A program made the position numbers and the translations under genes. DNA of 12,502 nucleotides. Origin: Pirellulaceae bacterium. GTDB lineage: Bacteria; Planctomycetota; Planctomycetia; Pirellulales; Pirellulaceae. A model generated the notes under the pieces. It had not been told where the DNA came from. It ran no database searches and saw only the letters and a program-made list of their open reading frames with translations. Of the stretch, positions 2,928 to 12,502 are shown piece after piece. The DNA is taken from positions 1 to 12,502 of the forward strand of contig JBFJVZ010000213.1 in assembly GCA_041623895.1 (NCBI GenBank). The letters are read 5' to 3'. The stretch's first letter is position 1. Each line of letters opens with the position of its first letter.

Positions 2928-3767
2928 CTAGCCGCCGCTGGCTGGCTGGTAGCCGGCATCGCGAGGTGTGAATTGAAAGTTGCGGCTGTTAGCAAAGAAC
3001 GCCAGCGGATTTTCGTATACCACTTTGCGAATCAACGCTTCGCTATGCCCGCGGCGACGCATCTCGAAGATCAAATCGGGTACGGCCGTCGGCTTGCTCG
3101 GCCCCCAGTCGCCCGCCGAATTCGGCATCAAGCGATCAGCACCATACGTCTCAATCATGTCCACGGCTCGCTCGGGCGTGCACTTGGTGACTGGGTAAAG
3201 CGTCATGCCCGCCCAAAATCCACGATCAAGCACTTCGGCAATCGTATGCTCTTCAACATGATCGACCAGCACACGTGAACGATCGACTCGCGCGTCGTCG
3301 CACAACATATCCAGGATCATTCGCGTCCCCTGATACTTGTCCTCCAAGTGCGGCGTATGAATCAAAATCGGCTGCTCATGGTTGACGGCAAGATCAACGT
3401 GCTCCAGGAAAATGGTCGCCTCATTCTTGGTATTTTTATTCAAACCGATTTCGCCGATGCCCAGCACGTTTGGGCAATCCAGGAATTCTGGAATCATCGC
3501 GATCACTTCGCGCGAGAGCGAAACGTTTTCCGCTTCTTTGGCGTTGATGCACAGCCAGGTGTAATGCTGGATACCGAAATTGGCGGCACGCTTCGGTTCC
3601 ACCTCGGTCAATTGTCGAAAATAGTCTCGAAACCCGTCAACGCTGCCGCGATCAAAACCGGCCCAAAAGGCAGGCTCGCTCATCGCCACGCAGCCCATCC
3701 GAGCCAACGTGGCGTAGTCGTCCGTAATCCGAGACACCATGTGAATGTGCGGGTCGATGTAATCCAT
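2928..3767 (-). CDS. TatD-family metal-dependent hydrolase (TIM-barrel amidohydrolase superfamily; putative Mg/Zn-dependent DNase/hydrolase)
   Basis: 279 aa. N-terminal 'MDYIDPHIHM' matches the TatD 'hDxHxHh' metal-binding motif. 'PILIHTPH' (His-rich strand) and 'IGEIGLN' match the conserved TatD 'IGEIGLD' strand. ATG is at 3765-3767 and the TAG stop at 2928-2930. Confidence 0.7.
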   Translation of the reverse strand: MDYIDPHIHMVSRITDDYATLARMGCVAMSEPAFWAGFDRGSVDGFRDYFRQLTEVEPKRAANFGIQHYTWLCINAKEAENVSLSREVIAMIPEFLDCPNVLGIGEIGLNKNTKNEATIFLEHVDLAVNHEQPILIHTPHLEDKYQGTRMILDMLCDDARVDRSRVLVDHVEEHTIAEVLDRGFWAGMTLYPVTKCTPERAVDMIETYGADRLMPNSAGDWGPSKPTAVPDLIFEMRRRGHSEALIRKVVYENPLAFFANSRNFQFTPRDAGYQPASGG

Positions 3768-3824
3768 AACTTCTGAGTGAGTGTTTGAACGGGAGGATCG
3801 AAACAGGACTTACCAAGGGCAGTT

Positions 3825-4091
3825 TCAAATCTGCATTTCTTGTCGCCAAGTCGACTCGTACTGGCGGGAAAACAACAATTGCAATCTTTCCGCGCGATCA
3901 GGCCCTTCGCTCAATAGCAAGCGGATCGCCTCGTCCAGCTTCTTGCGACGATCAATCGAACCGTCCGAAAGTGGCGAGCCTTCGTCAGCAGAGCGGTCGA
4001 TACGATCCAGGGTGGCGGCGATTTCCAACAGCTTAGCGCGAACCTCCAAAAACGTTTCATCTAGGATCGCGTCTGCAGGGCGACTGGTCAT
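3825..4091 (-). CDS. Small hypothetical protein (88 aa, charged/helical: MTSRPADAILDETFLEVRAKLLEIAATLDRIDRSADEG…)
   Basis: ATG at 4089-4091. The ORF track extends it to 4268, but that N-terminal extension (MLVTLSSHSPNGISPRIELAEFGDSVGP…) is low-complexity and overlaps the repeat-rich region downstream of the giant gene. A TATAAT hexamer sits 37 nt upstream of the 4091 start. It ends 57 bp upstream of the TatD start and I recognise no family. Confidence 0.4.
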   Translation of the reverse strand: MTSRPADAILDETFLEVRAKLLEIAATLDRIDRSADEGSPLSDGSIDRRKKLDEAIRLLLSEGPDRAERLQLLFSRQYESTWRQEMQI

Positions 4092-4127
4092 AACAGAACT
4101 CGCGGATAGGTGCCGAAAACAAGCTCC

Positions 4128-4133
4128 ATTATA
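4128..4133 (-). promoter_or_regulatory. Candidate -10 element (perfect TATAAT on minus strand) 37 nt upstream of the small ORF start at 4091
   Basis: Plus strand 4128-4133 'attata' gives minus-strand TATAAT. No convincing -35 sits at 17±1 spacing (nearest is TTGCCA, too close). Promoter consensus for this lineage is uncertain. Confidence 0.2.
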
Positions 4134-4230
4134 GGCCAGCTTTGGCAAACTAGCCATGATGCCATGATTGGGCCGGAAGGAAGCGGGCCCGACACTGTCG
4201 CCGAACTCTGCGAGTTCGATCCTCGGTGAA

Positions 4231-4290
4231 ATCCCATTCGGAGAATGGGACGACAGTGTCACCAACATCCCATGCGGAGAATTGGACGAC
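4231..4290. repeat. Imperfect direct repeat, 2 copies of ~24 bp (atcccatTcggagaatGggacgac / atcccatGcggagaatTggacgac), 36 bp centre-to-centre, immediately 3' of the giant gene stop; copy 1 contains the palindrome cattc-gga-gaatg
   Basis: Seen directly: 4233-4254 and 4269-4290 match at 20/22 positions, and the match extends 2 nt further left (atccc). The region also holds a nested inverted repeat, cgacactgtcg (4190-4200) / cgacagtgtc (4251-4260), and a hairpin, cgaact-ctgcg-agttcg (4202-4218). Confidence 0.45.
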
Positions 4291-4295
4291 TTTGG

Positions 4296-7200
4296 CTAAC
4301 CTGGCTGGTCATCGGAGGCGCTGTCAAACGTTTTTTCGATCTGCTGGTAATTCGCCAGCATCGAATCCAACTGGGCACGCAGGCGATCGAGGTCGCGACC
4401 GTTGTCGATCGCTTCGGCCAATAGCGGCCGCAACCATTCTTGCATGAGGTGAAACTGACCTTTAACAAGGTCGGCCAGGACCCGCGGCACCTTGTGCTGC
4501 ACGAATACTTTTTGGTCGGGCGGTTCGGCGCTGGCTTGCTGCTCGGCGATTCTTTCCAGTTGCCGGCCGGTAGCTTGAAGTTTCTCAGCCAACTCCGATC
4601 CCGTGACGGTCAAACTATGACGCAGCGAATCGATCCGCGCGTCCATCCGCTCCTCCGCACCTTCGTCACCGACCGCGATGGCCCGCGAGATGACTTGCCG
4701 GATCGACTCTAAGCCGTCTCGCATGGACGCTAACTGGCGCATCAATTGGGCTGCCTGGTCTTCGTTGTCCATGCCCGCCATGCGGACGCTTTCGACGAAG
4801 GCGTACTTGATCGCGTCCCAACGCTGTTGTTCTTCCGCCGTCAGAATGCCCATCAATTCTTTGAACTTTAGCACATTGGCTTCGTTGTCAGTCGTCAACG
4901 TTTGCGCATCTTGTTCGTAATTGCTGATGATCAACGACTGCAATTCGGCCTCGTTCATGACACTGGCAACACGCTCGGCAATGCGGTTCATGTTGCGGTA
5001 GCTACCCTGTAACTTGAAGGGCGGTTCGGTGCGGTACGTGTCGGCTTGTGCGGCGCTACGGATATAAGTCCGATTGACTCGCAGGACCACATCGCGAACC
5101 CGAATTAGCTTGCGAGTCACTTCGTACATGTCGCGGACCTGATCCATGGAAAAATTGCTTTGCAGCTCCAGCCCCTCCATCGTGTCGCGTTCGGCGGCCC
5201 GGATCACGGCGCGAGCATCCTCCGGCGGCGCGGTCGACAGCGGAGCCAGCGTGGGGTTGCTGGTCAAGCAGTTTTCCAAATAACTCATCTCGAAAGCATC
5301 GGCGGCGTCACCGATGATTTCACCCAAGTTGTAGACGTCCGCACGATTGGACAGCATGTCAGGAATTTGAAATCGTTCACCGCTTTCAGTGTAGGGATTG
5401 CCCGCCATCACGACCGCGACCCGGCGTCCGCGCAAGTCATACGTTCGCGTCTTGCCGTTGCGGACGCCTTCGATCTTTCGCGTTGCATCACACAGCGAGA
5501 TGAATTTCTGTAGCAATTCCGGATGAGTGTGCTGGATGTCGTCCAAATACAACATCATGTTGTCGCCCATTTCCAGGGCAAGATTCAAACGCTCGATTTC
5601 TTCCCGTGCTGCCGCATTGGGCGCTTCGGCCGGATCCAGCGACGTGACACCATGTCCAATCGCAGGGCCGTTGATCTTCATGAAGACAACGCCCAAGCGA
5701 TTGGCGATGTATTCCATCAGCGTGGTCTTCCCGTAGCCGGGCGGCGAAATCAGCAGCAACAGTCCCATACGATCAGTACGCTTGTCTTCACCGGCCGCGC
5801 CCATCTGCTTGGCCAAGTTATCGCCGACCAGCGGCAGGTACACTTCATCGATCAGGCGGTTGCGAACAAAACTGGTCAATACGCGCGGTTTGAATTCATC
5901 CAACCGCATTTCTTCGCGCGACTGGTCAACAATCCGGTTTTTCGTTTCATGTAATTCCCGGAAACGGGGCACGACGTCTTCACGGTAGCGGCGGACGCGC
6001 CTCAGTAATTCGTGGTAGTGGATGACGTATTTGCCTTTGTTGATCCGGGGATGGCTGCCCGCCAAACCTTCCAACGTGCCGGCCACGGAGGCGTCCGCGA
6101 TACGCATGGCGGATGTGCCGCCCGCCTGGATGATCCAGGCCAGTTCATCCGCATAATATTCAGCTGGATCAGCTTCGTCGTGCCTGCCATGAGTTTGCAA
6201 AAACGCGTTTGCCCAGTTACGAGCCAGTATGAACGCTTTGACCGGATCGGCATCGGCCGTTTTGATCGCTTGCGTCAGCAATTTGTCGCGGTCTGCTTCG
6301 GGGATCGCCGCTAAAAATTCATCAAACAGCCTGGCCGCTTTGCCGCTGCAAACCGGTTTGCGGGGTGTGGCGATCAACTGGTCAAACAAGTAGCCGGCGA
6401 TTCGCTCGGCAGACACATCGCGGCCGAAAACTGGCTGCCAAAGATTACGATCGACCTCAGCCAACTCGGCCAGCCGACTGCGAAATTCGACGGCAGGCTG
6501 AGCTTTGGGATACGCTTTTGCAAGTTTTGCGAAGCCACCGATCCAATCGGTCATTGCTTTCCGATCCTTTGCCGCCAGCAATCGGCCATACCACAGCTGG
6601 GAAGCGGCTCGCAGCGAAGGCGGATGTCGCAATAAGTCAATCATCCCGTCAATCTCCAGCAAAGACTTCAGGATTGCCGCTGTGTCTTGATCGTGAACGC
6701 CCTTGGCATAACCTTCATCAAATCGTCCGGCGATCTGGGTTTGCACCCAAGCTGCGTCAAGCTTGGCGGGGTCCGTCGGTAGTTCAGGATGCTCGAACAA
6801 ATCGATGGCCAGGAATTCGGCGCGATAAACGTCTTGGTTCTCGCTGACCAGTTCTTGATTCCAGAGATCCTTAGCGGCGCAGAGGGCTTCGTCGCTCAAT
6901 GGCTGAAAATACTGCGTTCCCGTCAGGTGCAAACACATGGCGCCATCGCGAACGACGGTTGTCAGATCTAAGGGCTGCGTATTGACGGCAAATCGCTTGT
7001 CACCCAAGCGAATCACATCGCCACCGTCTTCATACAGATCTTGCCGATCTTTCAGCTGTCGGGTTGCGTCTTCCCGAATCGTTTTGAGTCGACTTTGCAG
7101 GTCACCCACGCGAACGGCATCATCCAGCTCGCCGAGCTGCGTGATGATGTCGCGAATCTTTTCGACCATCAGATCGCCGGCAAAGTACGCGGCGATTTCG

Positions 7201-9539
7201 TCAGTCGATTCCATCGCGCGAATCCGGGTGTCGATTCCTTTCAGAATGCGGCTGGCTGCCGCGGACAAAGATTCCGCCCGCCGATTTCGCTTTTCAATCA
7301 ACGCAACTTTGCGTGATTCGAATGCTGCATAAACTTCCTCGCGACGAGTAGCCAATTGGACGACAAACTCGTCGAATTCAGCAAAGCGTCCTTCCAACTC
7401 TTCTATTTGGACCATCACTTTGGTCAAGTACTCGTCGCACTTATCGGGCGAGTCACAGACATCCAGATATCCTGAAGTGGTTTGTTGCAGCAGTTTCAGT
7501 TGAGATGCGAATTCGGCGCGACCTTCAACGCTGACCAGTTCGCTGACCCGGGCCTTCAACGCGCTTCGAACTCGGTTGAGCGAAGCAAACACGTCGCCGA
7601 TCGAGTCGATGATCTCCGTCCGTTTGGTGGCATCATCGATCCGCAGATTGCTAACGGTTTCGGTCAACAGCTCCAGCTGAGACGCTGCCTGATCAATTTC
7701 TTCACCCAGTTTCTTTGCTTCGGCGACGGTGGCGACTTCGCCGACTTTGGCTGCGGCGGTTTCCACGCGCTGCTCGTAGGGCACAAGCGATCCTGGAGTC
7801 AGCAAAAAATCGACGCAGCGGCGGCTAATTCTTTCGGCCCGCTCGGCCGTCGATTTTTCAAGCTCTTCGATGATCGACTCGTCGACATAGCGCAGCTCTT
7901 TCAGTCCCAGCGCGTGTCCCCGCTGCTCGCGCAATTGAGCCAAGGCGGAAACGAAGTCATCAATCGACTCGAAACGGCTTCGCTCAATGTGCTTGATCAA
8001 CTCGCCGATCGCTTTTTGCACCTCGGCCGTCCGCTGGGATGTATCACCTCGAACGCGGACGACTTTCTCGTATTCCTCGACAGCCGCCTTGGCCGCCTCG
8101 CGAATCTTCTGCAGCGGCTCGGCCAGATTTTCGGTTTCTTGCTTGTCGATCCAGAAGTGGCTGTCCAGTACATCCGACGATTTCTTTACCAAGTCGACGT
8201 ACAAGCCGTCGTAGCTGTCTTCCTTGTCGATCAGCTGCAACAGTTCGCTGCATTCGGCCATCCCGCGGACGATTTCTTTGTTGCCGATTTTGAAGAGCAG
8301 TGAATCGGTTTTCTTATCAGCGACGTAGTTGGCGCCGGTAAACGGTGTTTGCCAGATTTGGATCGCGTGGTGTTTTTGCGGCTCCTGTCCGCCGCCAAAG
8401 CAAACCATTTCGCCGCCTTCGAACAGCGTCTGGCCGTGGCAAACCAGCGGCGTGTCGACGGTATGTTTGATGACGTTGTAGCGGAGTTGCAGGTAAGTCC
8501 CATGTTCGGGCGAATAGAACAGATACAGGTAGTCTTCGCCGTTGGATGAGGCGACGGTGCGTTGATATCGCATGTCGGTCAGCCCGTGGTCGAATTGCTT
8601 GAATTCGCCTGTTTGCAAATAGTAGCCGCCCGGAAAAATCAAGCCCTGGTCGCTCGGCAACATCACGCAACACTGTTCGATGTCGTCCAGACGCATCGCT
8701 TGCTGGATCTTGCCGTTGTAGACCAGGTAACGCGTTTGTTGTTCCTGATACGGCCGCATCTTTAGCAGTATCAGGTTGCCGACGATCGTGTAATGGATCT
8801 CGGCGTCATCCAGCGTTTGGTCACGATGCTCGACCGGCTCGGCGTAGATTCCTTCGCCGCTATCGGTGTTGTTTTCCACCTTAATTGTCAAGTCACCGCC
8901 AACGGTCTCGACAAAGATACGGTCCGCGATAGAGATATGTGGATGGGCGCCATAATGGTGCTGGTCACGGTTGGTTCGCAGCCAGCGGAATTCGTGTTGA
9001 TCCGGGTCACGGACTTCGTGTTCGCTACGATTATCCAGGTACTCGATCGAATCGGGCGTCATGCGCCACTTGAATGTCTTGATATCGCGGGTTGTTTTTC
9101 CAACCTGAAAGACCATGTGCAAGATTGGCCCGGCGCGAAAGAAGCGGGCAAAAGTCGTGCCTTTATAGAAACGATACAACTCGTGAAAATCGTTCCTGAA
9201 CCGATCGTCACCAATCAATTCGAGCGAATCGCTGTGGAATTGATGGTCGGCAAACCGGTAGACCGAAAAGACATCAGCGAGTCCGATCTCCGTTTTCAGG
9301 CCAAACTGAACGTTGTAGCCAAACAGAAACTTGTCACCGATCGAAACCAGATCACGCGGCACGCAATTGTGCTCGGTGGTCACGCGCTCGGTTGTCAGCA
9401 ACGTGGTTTCGATGTTGCCGAAGACCTCGCCGCGAGCTTCGTTCAGTCTGGCCAACCGCGTGCGCAAATCTCCCGCTGCGTCCCGCAATCGATTGCGAAG
9501 AACCTCATAGGTGCCGGCAGCGAGTTGGGTGTCGGTCAT
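4296..9539 (-). CDS. Giant (1747 aa) multidomain protein with one MoxR/AAA_5-type AAA+ ATPase module; flotillin-associated; function unknown
   Basis: Single uninterrupted ORF from ATG 9537-9539 to TAG 4296-4298. Architecture by eye: residues ~1-480 are beta-rich with many W/Y/F/H (…FSVYRFADHQFHSDSLELIGDDRF…YLYLFYSPEHGTYLQLRYNV…). Residues ~480-1130 form a charged helical/coiled-coil region. Residues ~1140-1330 are the AAA+ module: Walker A 'LLLISPPGYGKTTLMEY', Walker B 'MMLYLDDIQHTHPELLQKFISLCDA' (MoxR-like hhhhD[DE]IN/Q…LLxxhxE), and sensor-1 region 'RRVAVVMAGNPYTESGERFQIPDMLSNRADVYNL' resembling MoxR 'ATQNPxExEGTxxLPEAQLDRF'. A ~420-aa helical domain follows at the C-terminus. Confidence 0.85.
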   Translation of the reverse strand: MTDTQLAAGTYEVLRNRLRDAAGDLRTRLARLNEARGEVFGNIETTLLTTERVTTEHNCVPRDLVSIGDKFLFGYNVQFGLKTEIGLADVFSVYRFADHQFHSDSLELIGDDRFRNDFHELYRFYKGTTFARFFRAGPILHMVFQVGKTTRDIKTFKWRMTPDSIEYLDNRSEHEVRDPDQHEFRWLRTNRDQHHYGAHPHISIADRIFVETVGGDLTIKVENNTDSGEGIYAEPVEHRDQTLDDAEIHYTIVGNLILLKMRPYQEQQTRYLVYNGKIQQAMRLDDIEQCCVMLPSDQGLIFPGGYYLQTGEFKQFDHGLTDMRYQRTVASSNGEDYLYLFYSPEHGTYLQLRYNVIKHTVDTPLVCHGQTLFEGGEMVCFGGGQEPQKHHAIQIWQTPFTGANYVADKKTDSLLFKIGNKEIVRGMAECSELLQLIDKEDSYDGLYVDLVKKSSDVLDSHFWIDKQETENLAEPLQKIREAAKAAVEEYEKVVRVRGDTSQRTAEVQKAIGELIKHIERSRFESIDDFVSALAQLREQRGHALGLKELRYVDESIIEELEKSTAERAERISRRCVDFLLTPGSLVPYEQRVETAAAKVGEVATVAEAKKLGEEIDQAASQLELLTETVSNLRIDDATKRTEIIDSIGDVFASLNRVRSALKARVSELVSVEGRAEFASQLKLLQQTTSGYLDVCDSPDKCDEYLTKVMVQIEELEGRFAEFDEFVVQLATRREEVYAAFESRKVALIEKRNRRAESLSAAASRILKGIDTRIRAMESTDEIAAYFAGDLMVEKIRDIITQLGELDDAVRVGDLQSRLKTIREDATRQLKDRQDLYEDGGDVIRLGDKRFAVNTQPLDLTTVVRDGAMCLHLTGTQYFQPLSDEALCAAKDLWNQELVSENQDVYRAEFLAIDLFEHPELPTDPAKLDAAWVQTQIAGRFDEGYAKGVHDQDTAAILKSLLEIDGMIDLLRHPPSLRAASQLWYGRLLAAKDRKAMTDWIGGFAKLAKAYPKAQPAVEFRSRLAELAEVDRNLWQPVFGRDVSAERIAGYLFDQLIATPRKPVCSGKAARLFDEFLAAIPEADRDKLLTQAIKTADADPVKAFILARNWANAFLQTHGRHDEADPAEYYADELAWIIQAGGTSAMRIADASVAGTLEGLAGSHPRINKGKYVIHYHELLRRVRRYREDVVPRFRELHETKNRIVDQSREEMRLDEFKPRVLTSFVRNRLIDEVYLPLVGDNLAKQMGAAGEDKRTDRMGLLLLISPPGYGKTTLMEYIANRLGVVFMKINGPAIGHGVTSLDPAEAPNAAAREEIERLNLALEMGDNMMLYLDDIQHTHPELLQKFISLCDATRKIEGVRNGKTRTYDLRGRRVAVVMAGNPYTESGERFQIPDMLSNRADVYNLGEIIGDAADAFEMSYLENCLTSNPTLAPLSTAPPEDARAVIRAAERDTMEGLELQSNFSMDQVRDMYEVTRKLIRVRDVVLRVNRTYIRSAAQADTYRTEPPFKLQGSYRNMNRIAERVASVMNEAELQSLIISNYEQDAQTLTTDNEANVLKFKELMGILTAEEQQRWDAIKYAFVESVRMAGMDNEDQAAQLMRQLASMRDGLESIRQVISRAIAVGDEGAEERMDARIDSLRHSLTVTGSELAEKLQATGRQLERIAEQQASAEPPDQKVFVQHKVPRVLADLVKGQFHLMQEWLRPLLAEAIDNGRDLDRLRAQLDSMLANYQQIEKTFDSASDDQPG
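5330..5770 (-). other. MoxR/AAA_5-like ATPase module inside the giant ORF (Walker A encoded ~5721-5741, Walker B ~5535-5557, NP…E…G…R sensor/arginine region ~5340-5411)
   Basis: Reverse complement of 5721-5760 encodes MGLLLLISPPGYGKTT, and of 5535-5557 encodes LYLDDIQ. Motif spacing (Walker A to Walker B ~60 aa; Walker B to NP motif ~45 aa) is typical of AAA_5/MoxR ATPases, not classical-clade AAA. Confidence 0.7.
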
Positions 9540-9668
9540 GAAATGCGACTAGTGTTTTGGGAGGGCGAGGCTCCTGTCGAGCCGACGGGCCTGACGATCA
9601 CGGCTCAGCGAACGCTCGGCCCTGCTGGTGGCCATTTTCGCAGCCCTCGACTCGGGACTGACCAGTGC

Positions 9669-11798
9669 TTACGCCTTTTTTCCGTTGCTGCCTGCGGCTG
9701 TGGCGGTCAGCAATCGTCCTGCCTTTTGATCAGCGATGTTGGCGGTTCCGGCCATGCCCAACAAGCTGGTCAACTGCGACTTGACGTCTTCGGTGTCAGC
9801 CAATCCCATCATTTTGGCGATCAACGCCGCGATGGAAAGATCTTTGACGCCGTCGGTATCCAAGTTGAATTGACTGATCATGCTGGTCAGTTGGTCCTTA
9901 AAATACTCCGCATTGCCGTCAAAGAATGTGTCCTTGATGTCGGTCGCGACACGGCTGTTGTAGACGAATCGGTCGATCGCCTTGCCGCCTTTGACAGCGG
10001 AAGTGATCTGCTCGAAGAATTCGCCGTCGCCACCGACAATATCGATGCGAGCTGACTTGAGTGCGTCGCCGATCACACCCGCCTGACTTTCGGCAATGCC
10101 GCGCTGCGCGTCGATAGCTGCGATCTCGACGTCCTTTTCTTTGTTCAGCTGCAGCTTGAATTCTTCGTGTTCCTTGCCGACGCTGTCCAAGACCTTCATG
10201 GCTTCGGCTTTCTCGGTAATTCCGGTCGCTTCGCTGCGGTACTTTTCCAAGTCGACGTTGGCTTCGGCCAGTCCCTGCTTTTCGATCGCGGCTGCTTTTG
10301 CTTCGATGCCCTTGGCTTCGGCAACGGCTTTCTTCTCCAAGACGACTGCCTCGGCGGTGCCCTCTTTTTCCAAGCTGACAGCTTTGGCTTCCTGCACGGT
10401 CGCATCGGCCAAACCGGGAGCCGCCTTGGTGGCAGCGGTGGCTTCGGCCAGCATTTTCTGGGCAGCGGTGTCTTTTTCCGCAGCATCTTTTTTGGCTTCG
10501 GCTTCGATACGAATCTTTTCCGCCAACAGCTCGCTGGCTTCTTTTTCAGCCTGAGCAAGTTTGGTTTGGCGAATCAGTTCTTCTTCGGCCTTCATCTGAG
10601 CGGCGGTGATTTGCACCTTCTTTAGTCGCTCGGCCAGGGCGAATTCTTCGGTGTCCTTGATCCGTTCCTGTTCTTCGACAACCGCTCGTTCGACGGCAAC
10701 ACGCTCGCGAATCACTTCCTGGATATTCCGTTTTTCGACTTCAATCGCCTTTTCCTTTTCGACTTCAGCCACGCCGACGACGCGTAATCGTTCGGTCGCT
10801 TCCAAATCGCGATCACGATTCACTCGTTCCAGTTCGACCGCATCGGTCTTTTCTTTATTGCGCTGAGCGACCAGAACTTGGCGCAGTTTGTTTTCTTCGG
10901 CAACACCGAGTTCTTCTTCGGTGGCGATCCGCGCCCGCTCGGCTTGCAGCCGTTGTTCTTCCTCGACCTTTTTAGCCGACGCTTGTTCGCGGGCAGTAAT
11001 CTCAGCGATTTCACGTCTCTGCTTTTCAACCGCTTCCACGCGCTGGCGTTCCAATTCCAGGATCGTTTCTTCTGCCTCGACGTCTTGCTTCTTGAGCGTC
11101 TTTTCTTTGTCGCGAGTGAACTGGTTTTCCTTGACTTTTTCCTGGGAGGTCAGCTCGGTAATCTTCTTGATACCTTCGGCATCAAGAATGTTGCTGGGAC
11201 TGAGCATTTCCAGCGGAGTTTGTTCCAGGTAGTCGATCGCAGCATCATCCAGGCAGTATCCATTCAGGTCAGTGCCGATCACTTTCAATATTTGGTCTTT
11301 GAACTTATCACGTTGGTCATAAAGTTCGACGAAATCAAAATTCTTGCCAACGGTCTTAAGTGCTTCACTGAATTTGGCGTCAAACAGTTCTCGCAATGTC
11401 TCCAGTTCGCTACAGCGTTTGGCACCAATCGACTGCGCGACTTCTTTCATTTGCTCTTGGGTGCTGTCGACGCGAATGAAGAAAGCGACTTTGATATCGG
11501 CACGAATGTTGTCGCGGCAAATCAATCCCTCGCTGCCTTGACGACTGATTTCAAAGCTTTTCAGCGTCAAGTCCATGTATTCATAGCGATGAATCAACGG
11601 AATGATTAGCCGACCGCCGGCGGAGGTCACATCCAAACCGCCCATGCCGGTTTTTACGATCGCTTTGTCAGGACCGACAACGATGTATTGTTTCTTGGCG
11701 ATGATTGCGACCAAGATCAGAACCACGAGGATCAGAATTACTATGATCCCCACGATCTGAGAGTTTTCGAGTGCTAGCAGTAAAAATGCGAGGCTCAC
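9669..11798 (-). CDS. Flotillin-family protein (SPFH/band-7 domain; YqiK/FloT-like) with an N-terminal transmembrane anchor and an unusually long Ala/Glu/Lys-rich coiled-coil 'flotillin' tail (709 aa)
   Basis: GTG start at 11796-11798 overlaps the upstream gene's TGA (GTGA). The N-terminal hydrophobic helix is 'IVGIIVILILVVLILVAIIA'. The SPFH-like core is 'YIVVGPDKAIVKTGMGG…RLIIPLIHRYEYMDLTLKSFEISRQGSEGLICRDNIRADIKVAFFIRV…'. A ~400-aa EA-rich heptad-like region follows (…AEAKKDAAEKDTAAQKMLAEATAATKAA…VAEAKGIEAKAAAIEKQGLAEA…) with a conserved-looking C-terminal flotillin end. TAA stop is at 9669-9671. Confidence 0.85.
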   Translation of the reverse strand: MSLAFLLLALENSQIVGIIVILILVVLILVAIIAKKQYIVVGPDKAIVKTGMGGLDVTSAGGRLIIPLIHRYEYMDLTLKSFEISRQGSEGLICRDNIRADIKVAFFIRVDSTQEQMKEVAQSIGAKRCSELETLRELFDAKFSEALKTVGKNFDFVELYDQRDKFKDQILKVIGTDLNGYCLDDAAIDYLEQTPLEMLSPSNILDAEGIKKITELTSQEKVKENQFTRDKEKTLKKQDVEAEETILELERQRVEAVEKQRREIAEITAREQASAKKVEEEQRLQAERARIATEEELGVAEENKLRQVLVAQRNKEKTDAVELERVNRDRDLEATERLRVVGVAEVEKEKAIEVEKRNIQEVIRERVAVERAVVEEQERIKDTEEFALAERLKKVQITAAQMKAEEELIRQTKLAQAEKEASELLAEKIRIEAEAKKDAAEKDTAAQKMLAEATAATKAAPGLADATVQEAKAVSLEKEGTAEAVVLEKKAVAEAKGIEAKAAAIEKQGLAEANVDLEKYRSEATGITEKAEAMKVLDSVGKEHEEFKLQLNKEKDVEIAAIDAQRGIAESQAGVIGDALKSARIDIVGGDGEFFEQITSAVKGGKAIDRFVYNSRVATDIKDTFFDGNAEYFKDQLTSMISQFNLDTDGVKDLSIAALIAKMMGLADTEDVKSQLTSLLGMAGTANIADQKAGRLLTATAAGSNGKKA
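10190..10560 (-). repeat. Cryptic degenerate repeats (recurring tggcttcggc / ttggcttcg motifs every ~50-60 bp) underlying the Glu/Ala/Lys-rich coiled-coil of the flotillin gene
   Basis: The motif (t)ggcttcggc recurs at ~10201, 10261, 10313, 10441 and 10493, with the variant ggcttcctg at ~10384. All alternative frames here give Ala/Ser-rich ORFs, which explains several spurious ORFs in the track (10096..10554, 10167..10625, 10196..10558). Confidence 0.3.
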
Positions 11799-12502
11799 AG
11801 TCGTGTCTCCGCTTCAAGATTGGTGACGGTGTAAATTCGTTTTTCGCTATCGAACCCGACAATCCGCACTTCCGTTCCCTTCGGAATTGTCGATCCATTG
11901 GTGCGCACATTTAGCAGTAGGGGGGACGCGTCCGTACGAAACTTAGCTTGCCCGAACGTGGGGGTTGCCTCAATCGAGGAAATTTCGCAAGTGCAACCCA
12001 TCAAATGATCCTTGTTGTACTTCGTCGGCTCAACAAAAAATCGAAGCATCGGTTGCGTAAAACCCTTGGTGACTGCAGTGGCAATCACAAAATTGCGAAT
12101 CGTCAGCAATGTGCTGGACATCCACGTCGGCGGAGAATAGTTATTCACGTCGAATGTGAACCACAGCCATGCCGAAACGGCCCAAAACGCGATCGTGAAA
12201 ATCCCTCCCCAGATGACGATCGGCAATCGCCCAAAGTTGGTCCAGCGGACAGCCATCCCACCGAGCCCACCGAACAAGTCGCTGGAAACTTCGGGCAAAT
12301 CTCCATCCGGCGCATCGACGCCCACATCCGGAACATCGACACCCACGTCGGGCACATCAATATCAATGTCCACATCCAGATCGACGTCCGGCGCGCCGAA
12401 GTCCAAATCGACTAAGCCAATCGCAGCCAGCAGCGTGTAGCCGATCATCAAACACGCAAGGATCGACGCCGGCCATAGGGGACCAACAAAGATTTCCTCG
12501 AA
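11795..12502 (-). CDS. NfeD-like / YqiJ-like membrane protein (partial; 5' end beyond the right edge of the window) with TM helices, an acidic (D-V/I-D) repeat linker and a C-terminal OB-fold-like beta domain
   Basis: The reading frame is open to the window edge (…FEEIFVGPLWPASILACLMMIGYTLLAAIGLV… is hydrophobic and TM-like), so the track's start at 12451 is internal. A second TM 'LPIVIWGGIFTIAFWAVSAWLWF' follows. The C-terminal 'GQAKFRTDASPLLLNVRTNGSTIPKGTEVRIVGFDSEKRIYTVTNLE' resembles the NfeD C-terminal beta-barrel (OB-fold) found in stomatin/flotillin operon partners such as E. coli yqiJ (upstream of yqiK). A 4-nt GTGA overlap joins it to the flotillin gene. Confidence 0.7.
   Translation of the reverse strand, partial: FEEIFVGPLWPASILACLMIGYTLLAAIGLVDLDFGAPDVDLDVDIDIDVPDVGVDVPDVGVDAPDGDLPEVSSDLFGGLGGMAVRWTNFGRLPIVIWGGIFTIAFWAVSAWLWFTFDVNNYSPPTWMSSTLLTIRNFVIATAVTKGFTQPMLRFFVEPTKYNKDHLMGCTCEISSIEATPTFGQAKFRTDASPLLLNVRTNGSTIPKGTEVRIVGFDSEKRIYTVTNLEAETRL
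12313..12400 (-). repeat. In-frame 21-bp tandem repeat (~2.5-4 units: catcgacgcccacatccggaa / catcgacacccacgtcgggca / catcaatatcaatgtccacat…) encoding the acidic PDVGVDV/PDVGVDA/PD… linker of the NfeD-like protein
   Basis: Seen directly in DNA and in the translation 'DLDVDIDIDVPDVGVDVPDVGVDAPDGDLPE'. The units diverge progressively, consistent with a slippage-prone, length-variable low-complexity linker. Confidence 0.5.

Follow-up and report, generated by a model that had tools for sequence, protein, structure and literature searches.

A flotillin gene pair followed by a giant DUF3686 AAA+ ATPase gene in a Pirellulaceae bacterium: an abbreviated form of a PspA-associated operon

A flotillin-ATPase unit found across phyla

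The window analysed here is the whole 12,502-nt stretch of contig JBFJVZ010000213.1 from a Pirellulaceae bacterium (GenBank assembly GCA_041623895.1), and the list of its open reading frames (ORFs) places the genes of interest all on the minus strand, coding first for a small membrane protein, then for a flotillin and then for a 1747-aa ATPase. These three genes are a co-inherited, operon-like and functionally linked unit, and the window is the abbreviated form, without PspA, of an operon described by Ravi et al. in 2024 (mSystems, PMC11237479; bioRxiv 2020). As to what the unit does, we lean, if not strongly, towards ATP-driven remodelling of flotillin assemblies or of their clients, most plausibly PspA, under membrane stress.

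The relatives scan took one genome per species and returned 155 relatives, and 80 loci were kept. In 68 of the 68 loci with enough upstream DNA (67 from the profile search and one from tblastn), the next gene upstream of the ATPase gene codes for a flotillin and is on the same strand, an arrangement far beyond chance. The original prediction, made from the letters of this stretch and its ORFs, had named synteny with flotillin and co-occurrence across phyla as checks on its idea, and both came out in its favour. The scanned loci belong to Planctomycetota, Verrucomicrobiota, Bacteroidota, Hydrogenedentota and Desulfobacterota, and a plasmid search adds Pseudomonadota (pQBR103, Proteus, Vibrio, Photobacterium, Halomonas), Actinomycetota and Deinococcota; the trio is inherited and transferred together in at least eight phyla. 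It sits on megaplasmids in six genera, and the order of small transmembrane (TM) protein, flotillin and ATPase is the same in all four records inspected (pQBR103, a Streptomyces plasmid, a Deinococcus plasmid and Proteus). Nearly all Pirellulaceae genera have kept the trio, at 64-88% identity. The DUF3686 family to which the ATPase belongs comprises 739 clusters at 50% identity with E<=1e-3, or 263 with E<=1e-30, and its full-length members are 1500-2040 aa long, mostly 1600-1930. When the neighbours of 12 diverse loci were compared by all-versus-all BLAST, nothing was conserved besides the trio; the few scanned neighbours are ordinary and vary by locus (M50 peptidase, MgtE, kinase, ADH, TatD-like, SLC12). 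No homologue of the ATPase was found in phage genomes.

Two minor observations concern these loci. Three Verrucomicrobiota loci carry a GxxExxY-type ORF of ~125 aa between the flotillin and ATPase genes (L076 7535-7909, L078 7521-7907 and L079 7395-7769); its product is presumably PD-(D/E)XK-like, judging from its sequence motif. The ORF looks like a selfish insert, and we rejected it as a part of the system. One locus, L021 (CAXQOB010000009.1), is binned as 'Nitrosopumilus sp.', an archaeon, with a flotillin 85% and an ATPase 72% identical to those of this window, and is probably a binning contaminant.

Gene arrangement in the window

The three-gene, same-strand cluster ending in a 1747-aa ATPase was described correctly in the original prediction as far as its ORFs are concerned. 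On the minus strand, the gene for a YqiJ/YuaF-type (NfeD-like) membrane protein runs from the window edge, which cuts it, to 11795 (11795-12502), the gene for a YqiK-type flotillin (SPFH protein) of 709 aa occupies 9669-11798, and the gene for the soluble ATPase occupies 4296-9539. The first two share a GTGA start/stop overlap at 11795-11798, which we confirmed by reading the sequence (...CGA CTG TGA / GTG AGC CTC...): the start codon of the flotillin gene is a GTG that lies inside the stop of the upstream gene. Between flotillin and ATPase is an intergenic spacer (9540-9668, minus strand) that had been put at 130 bp and free of a terminator; its length is 129 nt, and the site scan of the minus strand indeed found no terminator-like match in it, nor a sigma-70-like promoter match, nor was there an Rfam match.

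Across 72 loci this spacer has a median of 146 nt and a range of -4 to 1043 nt. Its sequence is not conserved between genera, and cross-locus comparison revealed no conserved element in it. A 146-nt spacer is well conserved among the close relatives L007, L009 and L011-L014, several of them labelled Rubripirellula, and not beyond them; close kinship alone may be the cause.

A YqiJ-YqiK-type pair

The small protein has hydrophobic helices, an acidic, D-rich linker and a C-terminal beta domain. Its ORF was listed as 11795-12451, with a TTG start at 12451. But the frame stays open beyond this point, up to base 12502 (12452-12502, minus strand), and the extra N-terminal residues (FEEIFVGPLWPASILACLM...) align to the first TM helix of the homologues. 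The gene is therefore truncated at its 5' end by the window edge, and the TTG is not the real start but an artefact of where the window ends. Compared with E. coli YqiJ by hhalign, a profile of 15 orthologues gave a probability of 97% (E=8e-11), with a match that runs through the membrane part and on through the C-terminal beta domain. Of the 15 homologues, 11 match Pfam YqiJ_N. The Pfam NfeD family (PF01957) scores 16.6 bits against a cut-off of 29.1, with weak matches in 3 of the 15 homologues, and the profile of the YqiJ-like family has no match among PDB sequences.

The flotillin matches Pfam Band_7 (E=1e-9) and is 30% identical to E. coli YqiK over 436 aa (BLASTP, E=7e-46); there is again no match among PDB sequences. 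Its single hydrophobic segment, residues 1-43, is an N-terminal anchor. A stretch of 340 residues (201-540), of which 61% are E, K, R, Q or A, is on this composition presumed to form a coiled coil, and a C-terminal domain follows it. By sequence comparison, then, the small protein and the flotillin are a YqiJ-YqiK-type pair. The NfeD/SPFH pair of the original prediction stands in this form, on the hhalign and BLASTP results, while the NfeD assignment in the strict Pfam sense falls below threshold.

E. coli YqiJ-YqiK and B. subtilis YuaF(NfeD2)-FloT share with the window a homologous small membrane protein and flotillin, in the same order and tightly coupled. They are not identical arrangements: downstream of yqiJ-yqiK in E. 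coli there is no ATPase gene but sibD/ibsD, and the flotillin of the window is ~150 aa longer.

Of 66 loci, 60 have the YqiJ-like gene. The other six (L026, L029, L030, L042, L067 and L070) make up one Rhodopirellula/Neorhodopirellula-like subclade that has no detectable copy and has apparently lost it; in the one of these that we inspected, L026, a gene for an MgtE-type Mg2+ transporter lies directly upstream of the flotillin gene instead. The small membrane partner thus seems dispensable, and because of these six loci it is the flotillin-ATPase pair, not the trio, that makes up the invariant core. In two other Pirellulaceae loci (L003 3370-4581 and L016 3568-4836) a gene for an M50 site-2 protease with CBS domains directly precedes the YqiJ-like gene in the same orientation, and this may be a lineage-specific extension of the operon.

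The ATPase: domains, motifs and predicted fold

The ATPase has no hydrophobic or TM segment. Pfam assigns residues 24-462 to DUF3686 (E=3e-189) and residues 585-666 to DUF7902 (E=5e-28). A single, weak P-loop match of the AAA/AAA_5/RuvB_N type covers residues ~1251-1385; there AAA_5 reaches 22.9 bits, with 22 as its cut-off, AAA reaches 27.7 and RuvB_N 24.6, the last being under its cut-off. There is no match to Pfam AAA_3. Single-sequence and profile searches against the PDB match the P-loop only, over 38 residues in the case of the profile, and an NCBIfam scan of the trio gave nothing meaningful.

The N-terminal part (residues 1-475, 8115-9539, minus strand like all parts of the gene) consists of a long N-terminal helix (3-40), the all-beta DUF3686 domain (46-397) and exit helices. 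In the AlphaFold2 model the DUF3686 domain has about 27 strands, and its structural matches to propellers are weak; the model suggests a beta-propeller-like domain. Residues 476-860 (6960-8114) are charged and poor in Pro and Gly (60% E/K/R/Q/D/A/L, 6% P+G) and contain DUF7902; we label them a presumed coiled coil because of this composition and because of the architecture published by Ravi et al. Next comes a conserved, presumably helical middle region (861-1200, 5940-6959) with no Pfam match, in which the motifs VYRAE(Y/F)LA and EGYxKGVHDxD are conserved both in 88 diverse family members and in an alignment of 68 sequences. The single AAA+ module spans residues 1201-1530 (4950-5939). The remainder (residues 1531-1747 and the stop codon, 4296-4949) stays conserved and helical up to about residue 1600; beyond this lies a charged, variable tail, mostly missing in the shorter homologues of Bacteroidota, Verrucomicrobiota and Proteobacteria; distant homologues align to the query only up to about residue 1620. 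Pfam and the predicted fold together bear out the earlier description of a single MoxR/AAA_5-like module flanked by large non-catalytic domains.

The nucleotide-binding motifs of the module are complete: Walker A is SPPGYGKTT (residues 1265-1273, with K1271), Walker B is LDDIQH (D1333-D1334, thus D-D and not D-E), sensor-1 is N1381 and the arginine finger is R1399. All four are conserved in 95% or more of the 88 diverse members, and the 68-sequence alignment shows no variation in the catalytic residues. With its nucleotide-binding and arginine-finger residues invariant, the protein is probably an active, oligomerising ATPase.

The structure model of the module covers residues 1180-1601, at a predicted local distance difference test score (pLDDT) of 83.8, and shows a standard AAA+ core with a beta-hairpin (1355-1368) inserted before the sensor-1 strand. 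Its best structural matches are the MoxR ATPases NorQ and CbbQ; in Foldseek NorQ comes top (E=2e-8), with RuvB close behind, and the margin over ClpA/B, Cdc6 and RuvB is modest. A MoxR-like fold is therefore the best description that the model affords, by that modest margin. This assignment rests on the fold, the sequence by itself being insufficient for it. Some sequence matches hinted at the classical AAA clade (Vps4/p97), an assignment that we rejected in view of the predicted fold with its pre-sensor-1 hairpin; the combination expected of the Vps4/classical clade, a fold without this hairpin together with an MIT domain, was not found.

The published operon and the link to PspA

The original prediction held that a giant AAA+ partner of flotillin/NfeD was not a described system. 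This does not hold, since Ravi et al. describe both the operon and its abbreviated form (PMC11237479). Their operon consists of a CesT/Tir-PspA dyad, YqiJ/YuaF, a band-7/flotillin protein and a "beta-propeller + coiled-coil + AAA+ ATPase", with YqiJ and YuaF as the prototypes of its 3TM protein and the prototype context being that of ANH61663.1 from Dokdonia donghaensis. They place the operon in the PspA membrane-stress network, propose chaperone-like, ATP-dependent membrane dynamics for it, and report that abbreviated operons without CesT/Tir-PspA are widespread and may act with PspA encoded elsewhere (PMC11237479). The window agrees with this operon in its three protein architectures and in gene order: it holds the flotillin, the YqiJ/YuaF-type multi-TM protein and the propeller-coiled-coil-AAA+ protein, and no CesT/Tir-PspA dyad is visible in it. 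From architecture and context, rather than from a comparison with the Dokdonia sequence, we infer that the ATPase of Ravi et al. belongs to the DUF3686 family. The kind of system is thus already known from comparative genomics, and the window is a clean minimal example of it.

The description by Ravi et al. does not assign the AAA+ protein to a clade, and it contains neither an analysis of its motifs nor experiments (PMC11237479). What is added here is the MoxR-like fold with its pre-sensor-1 hairpin, the invariant D-D Walker B, the flotillin-ATPase pair as the invariant core, the occurrence of the module on megaplasmids as well as in tractable hosts, and, on pQBR103, its apparent fusion to a yjf-type PspA/polyamine operon. 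Our literature searches found no paper on DUF3686 (PF12458), none joining YqiJ-YqiK or SPFH-MoxR-flotillin to the ATPase, and, among work on flotillin-NfeD-AAA+ operons, none describing this ATPase.

The module is repeatedly found in genetic linkage with PspA. In Pontibacter and Hymenobacter, the two Bacteroidota loci (L081 and L083) with a CesT/Tir-like gene upstream of PspA, this gene and the PspA/IM30 gene lie directly upstream of the trio on the same strand. In a further locus, from a Bacteroidota metagenome-assembled genome (L075), PspA is upstream and no CesT match was obtained. On plasmid pQBR103 of P. fluorescens SBW25 (L085, 1-12187), genes for PspA/IM30, a rhomboid protease, DUF2491, DUF350, DUF1190 and a glutathionylspermidine-synthase-like protein are followed by the trio, all on the same strand. 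This cluster looks like a PspA/polyamine operon of the E. coli yjfIJKLMC type with the flotillin-ATPase module attached, and two operon classes that Ravi et al. treated separately appear to be fused there. As for the window, it stops inside the YqiJ-like gene and no adjacent PspA is visible, as in the abbreviated form; in related Planctomycete loci with 5-8 kb of upstream DNA there is likewise no PspA or CesT match.

Proposed function and alternatives

A role as ATP-driven remodeller at flotillin assemblies was one reading of the original prediction, and it matches the proposal in the literature. In the mechanism that we propose, the flotillin and its YqiJ-like partner would oligomerise into large assemblies at the inner membrane, on its cytoplasmic side, and the ATPase ring would dock on these through its propeller and coiled-coil arm. 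ATP would then be spent to assemble, disassemble or recycle the flotillin assemblies or clients held there, the likeliest client being PspA polymers, which in this organism would be encoded elsewhere. The overall role would be in a membrane-stress or membrane-repair response. In support of this remodelling role we count the synteny, the operon signs, the PspA link, the literature proposal, the invariant ATPase motifs and the MoxR-type fold, as well as the pairing of a soluble ATPase with an anchored flotillin and the YqiJ/YqiK homology. The HflK/C-FtsH complex, an SPFH cage enclosing an AAA+ protease, likewise combines an SPFH scaffold with an AAA+ machine at the inner membrane, but FtsH belongs to the classical AAA clade and is a protease anchored in the membrane, whereas the ATPase of the window, whose gene shares an operon with the flotillin gene, is soluble and lacks a protease domain.

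Several points weigh against such a role. No PspA gene was found within the available DNA of the Planctomycete, Verrucomicrobiota, Hydrogenedentota, Desulfobacterota and Proteus loci, and the PspA link is consequently indirect for this window. The flotillin-ATPase spacer exceeds 400 nt in 15 of the 72 loci, which makes independent promoters possible. The D-D Walker B may point to hydrolysis that is slow and works as a switch, not to a processive motor, and residues 476-1180 of the ATPase lie outside the structure models. Finally, we found in the literature no experimental study, interaction, expression data or phenotype for the ATPase.

In the current view, bacteria use flotillins and PspA/ESCRT-III proteins to organise and repair their membranes, and an ATPase of ~1700 aa that is always beside flotillin and sometimes beside PspA is an obvious candidate for the energy source of their polymer dynamics. 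A more specific version of the remodelling role, which we regard as unlikely, is that the DUF3686 ATPase would be the bacterial counterpart of Vps4: non-homologous, MoxR-derived and docked on flotillin, it would disassemble or recycle polymers of PspA (ESCRT-III), SPFH proteins or both during membrane repair. The likeness to Vps4 acting on ESCRT-III in archaea and eukaryotes is conceptual, and consists in an AAA+ ATPase that is genetically linked to a protein of the ESCRT-III superfamily (PspA, in the extended operons). According to a 2025 review, bacteria seem to have no Vps4-like regulator of PspA polymerisation (PMC7619361); if true, this version would address the gap stated there.

We give a similarly small chance to an ATP-regulated structural tether, in which the coiled-coil protein would join flotillin patches to some other structure with its nucleotide state as the switch. 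The invariant D-D Walker B, in place of D-E, fits this idea, as D-D resembles the Walker B of switch-type AAA+ proteins such as DnaA, and so does the great length of the presumed coiled coil, with a terminal propeller suited to binding a second partner. But the invariant sensor-1 and arginine finger argue that hydrolysis matters, and there is no evidence for a second partner.

Nor do we think it likely that the protein is a canonical MoxR-type maturation chaperone, serving cofactor insertion or enzyme maturation like NorQ/NorD, CbbQ/CbbO or RavA/ViaA, with the flotillin as only a membrane platform. MoxR ATPases of these systems (NorQ-NorD, CbbQ-CbbO, RavA-ViaA) are the best structural matches and have the pre-sensor-1 hairpin in common with the window ATPase, and the AAA_5 score lies just over the Pfam cut-off. 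But the structural margin is modest, as noted above, and identity to these proteins is 13-18%. The window ATPase is 1747 aa long against roughly 250-500 aa, about five times the MoxR length, with unrelated flanking domains and a D-D Walker B. No partner gene with a VWA/MIDAS domain was found in the window or among the scanned neighbours of related loci, so the module is not a canonical MoxR protein, and no conserved client enzyme gene is adjacent.

Less probable again is an anti-phage or conflict system, the other reading offered in the original prediction, in which the flotillin and YqiJ-like protein would be the membrane sensor or effector and the ATPase an SMC- or STAND-like sensor triggering abortive infection. 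The patchy distribution and the megaplasmid copies point to horizontal transfer; an integrase, group II intron reverse transcriptases and IS110 adjoin the Pontibacter copy; and PADLOC weakly matches the coiled-coil region to LmuB (E=0.003). The LmuB match, however, has just 13.7 bits and falls in low-complexity coiled coil; no PADLOC match is significant, and the flotillin and the YqiJ-like protein have no matches at all in PADLOC-DB v2. The trio carries no nuclease, protease, TIR, pore-forming or other effector domain, the phage genomes searched hold no homologues, the few neighbours scanned are not of a defence type, and retention in nearly all Pirellulaceae genera also speaks against a conflict role.

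Least probable is that the large protein is a DNA repair ATPase with an incidental flotillin neighbour: the Pfam text for DUF3686 ('ATPase involved in DNA repair'), the NCBI name ('DNA repair ATPase'), the weak RuvB_N matches and the presence of RuvB among the Foldseek matches favour it, but the RuvB sequence matches cover only the P-loop (~45 residues, 24 bits against a cut-off of 27), as does the 38-residue match of the family profile in the PDB, the ATPase has no DNA-binding or nuclease domain, its gene is invariably linked to membrane proteins, and we found no published evidence behind the name. This misnaming probably hides the DUF3686 family from membrane biologists. The family occurs in tractable organisms such as Proteus mirabilis, P. 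fluorescens SBW25 with pQBR103, and Streptomyces.

Other features of the window

Farther downstream of the trio and unrelated to it, a gene on the minus strand (649-2892) codes for a 747-aa homologue of SLC12-type cation-chloride cotransporters, with AA_permease and SLC12 C-terminal domains; its match to the TIGR00930 K-Cl cotransporter family (E=4e-171) is under the family cut-off. Closer by, in the region 2928-4268, an ORF of 147 aa (3825-4268, minus strand) begins 27 nt past the stop of the ATPase gene. It has no family match, and just ~90 of its residues align to relatives. In eight related loci this ORF always adjoins the same gene for a TatD-like hydrolase, and the pair lies 2.2-4.1 kb farther from the ATPase gene there, which indicates that this genome is without a segment that its relatives have at this place.

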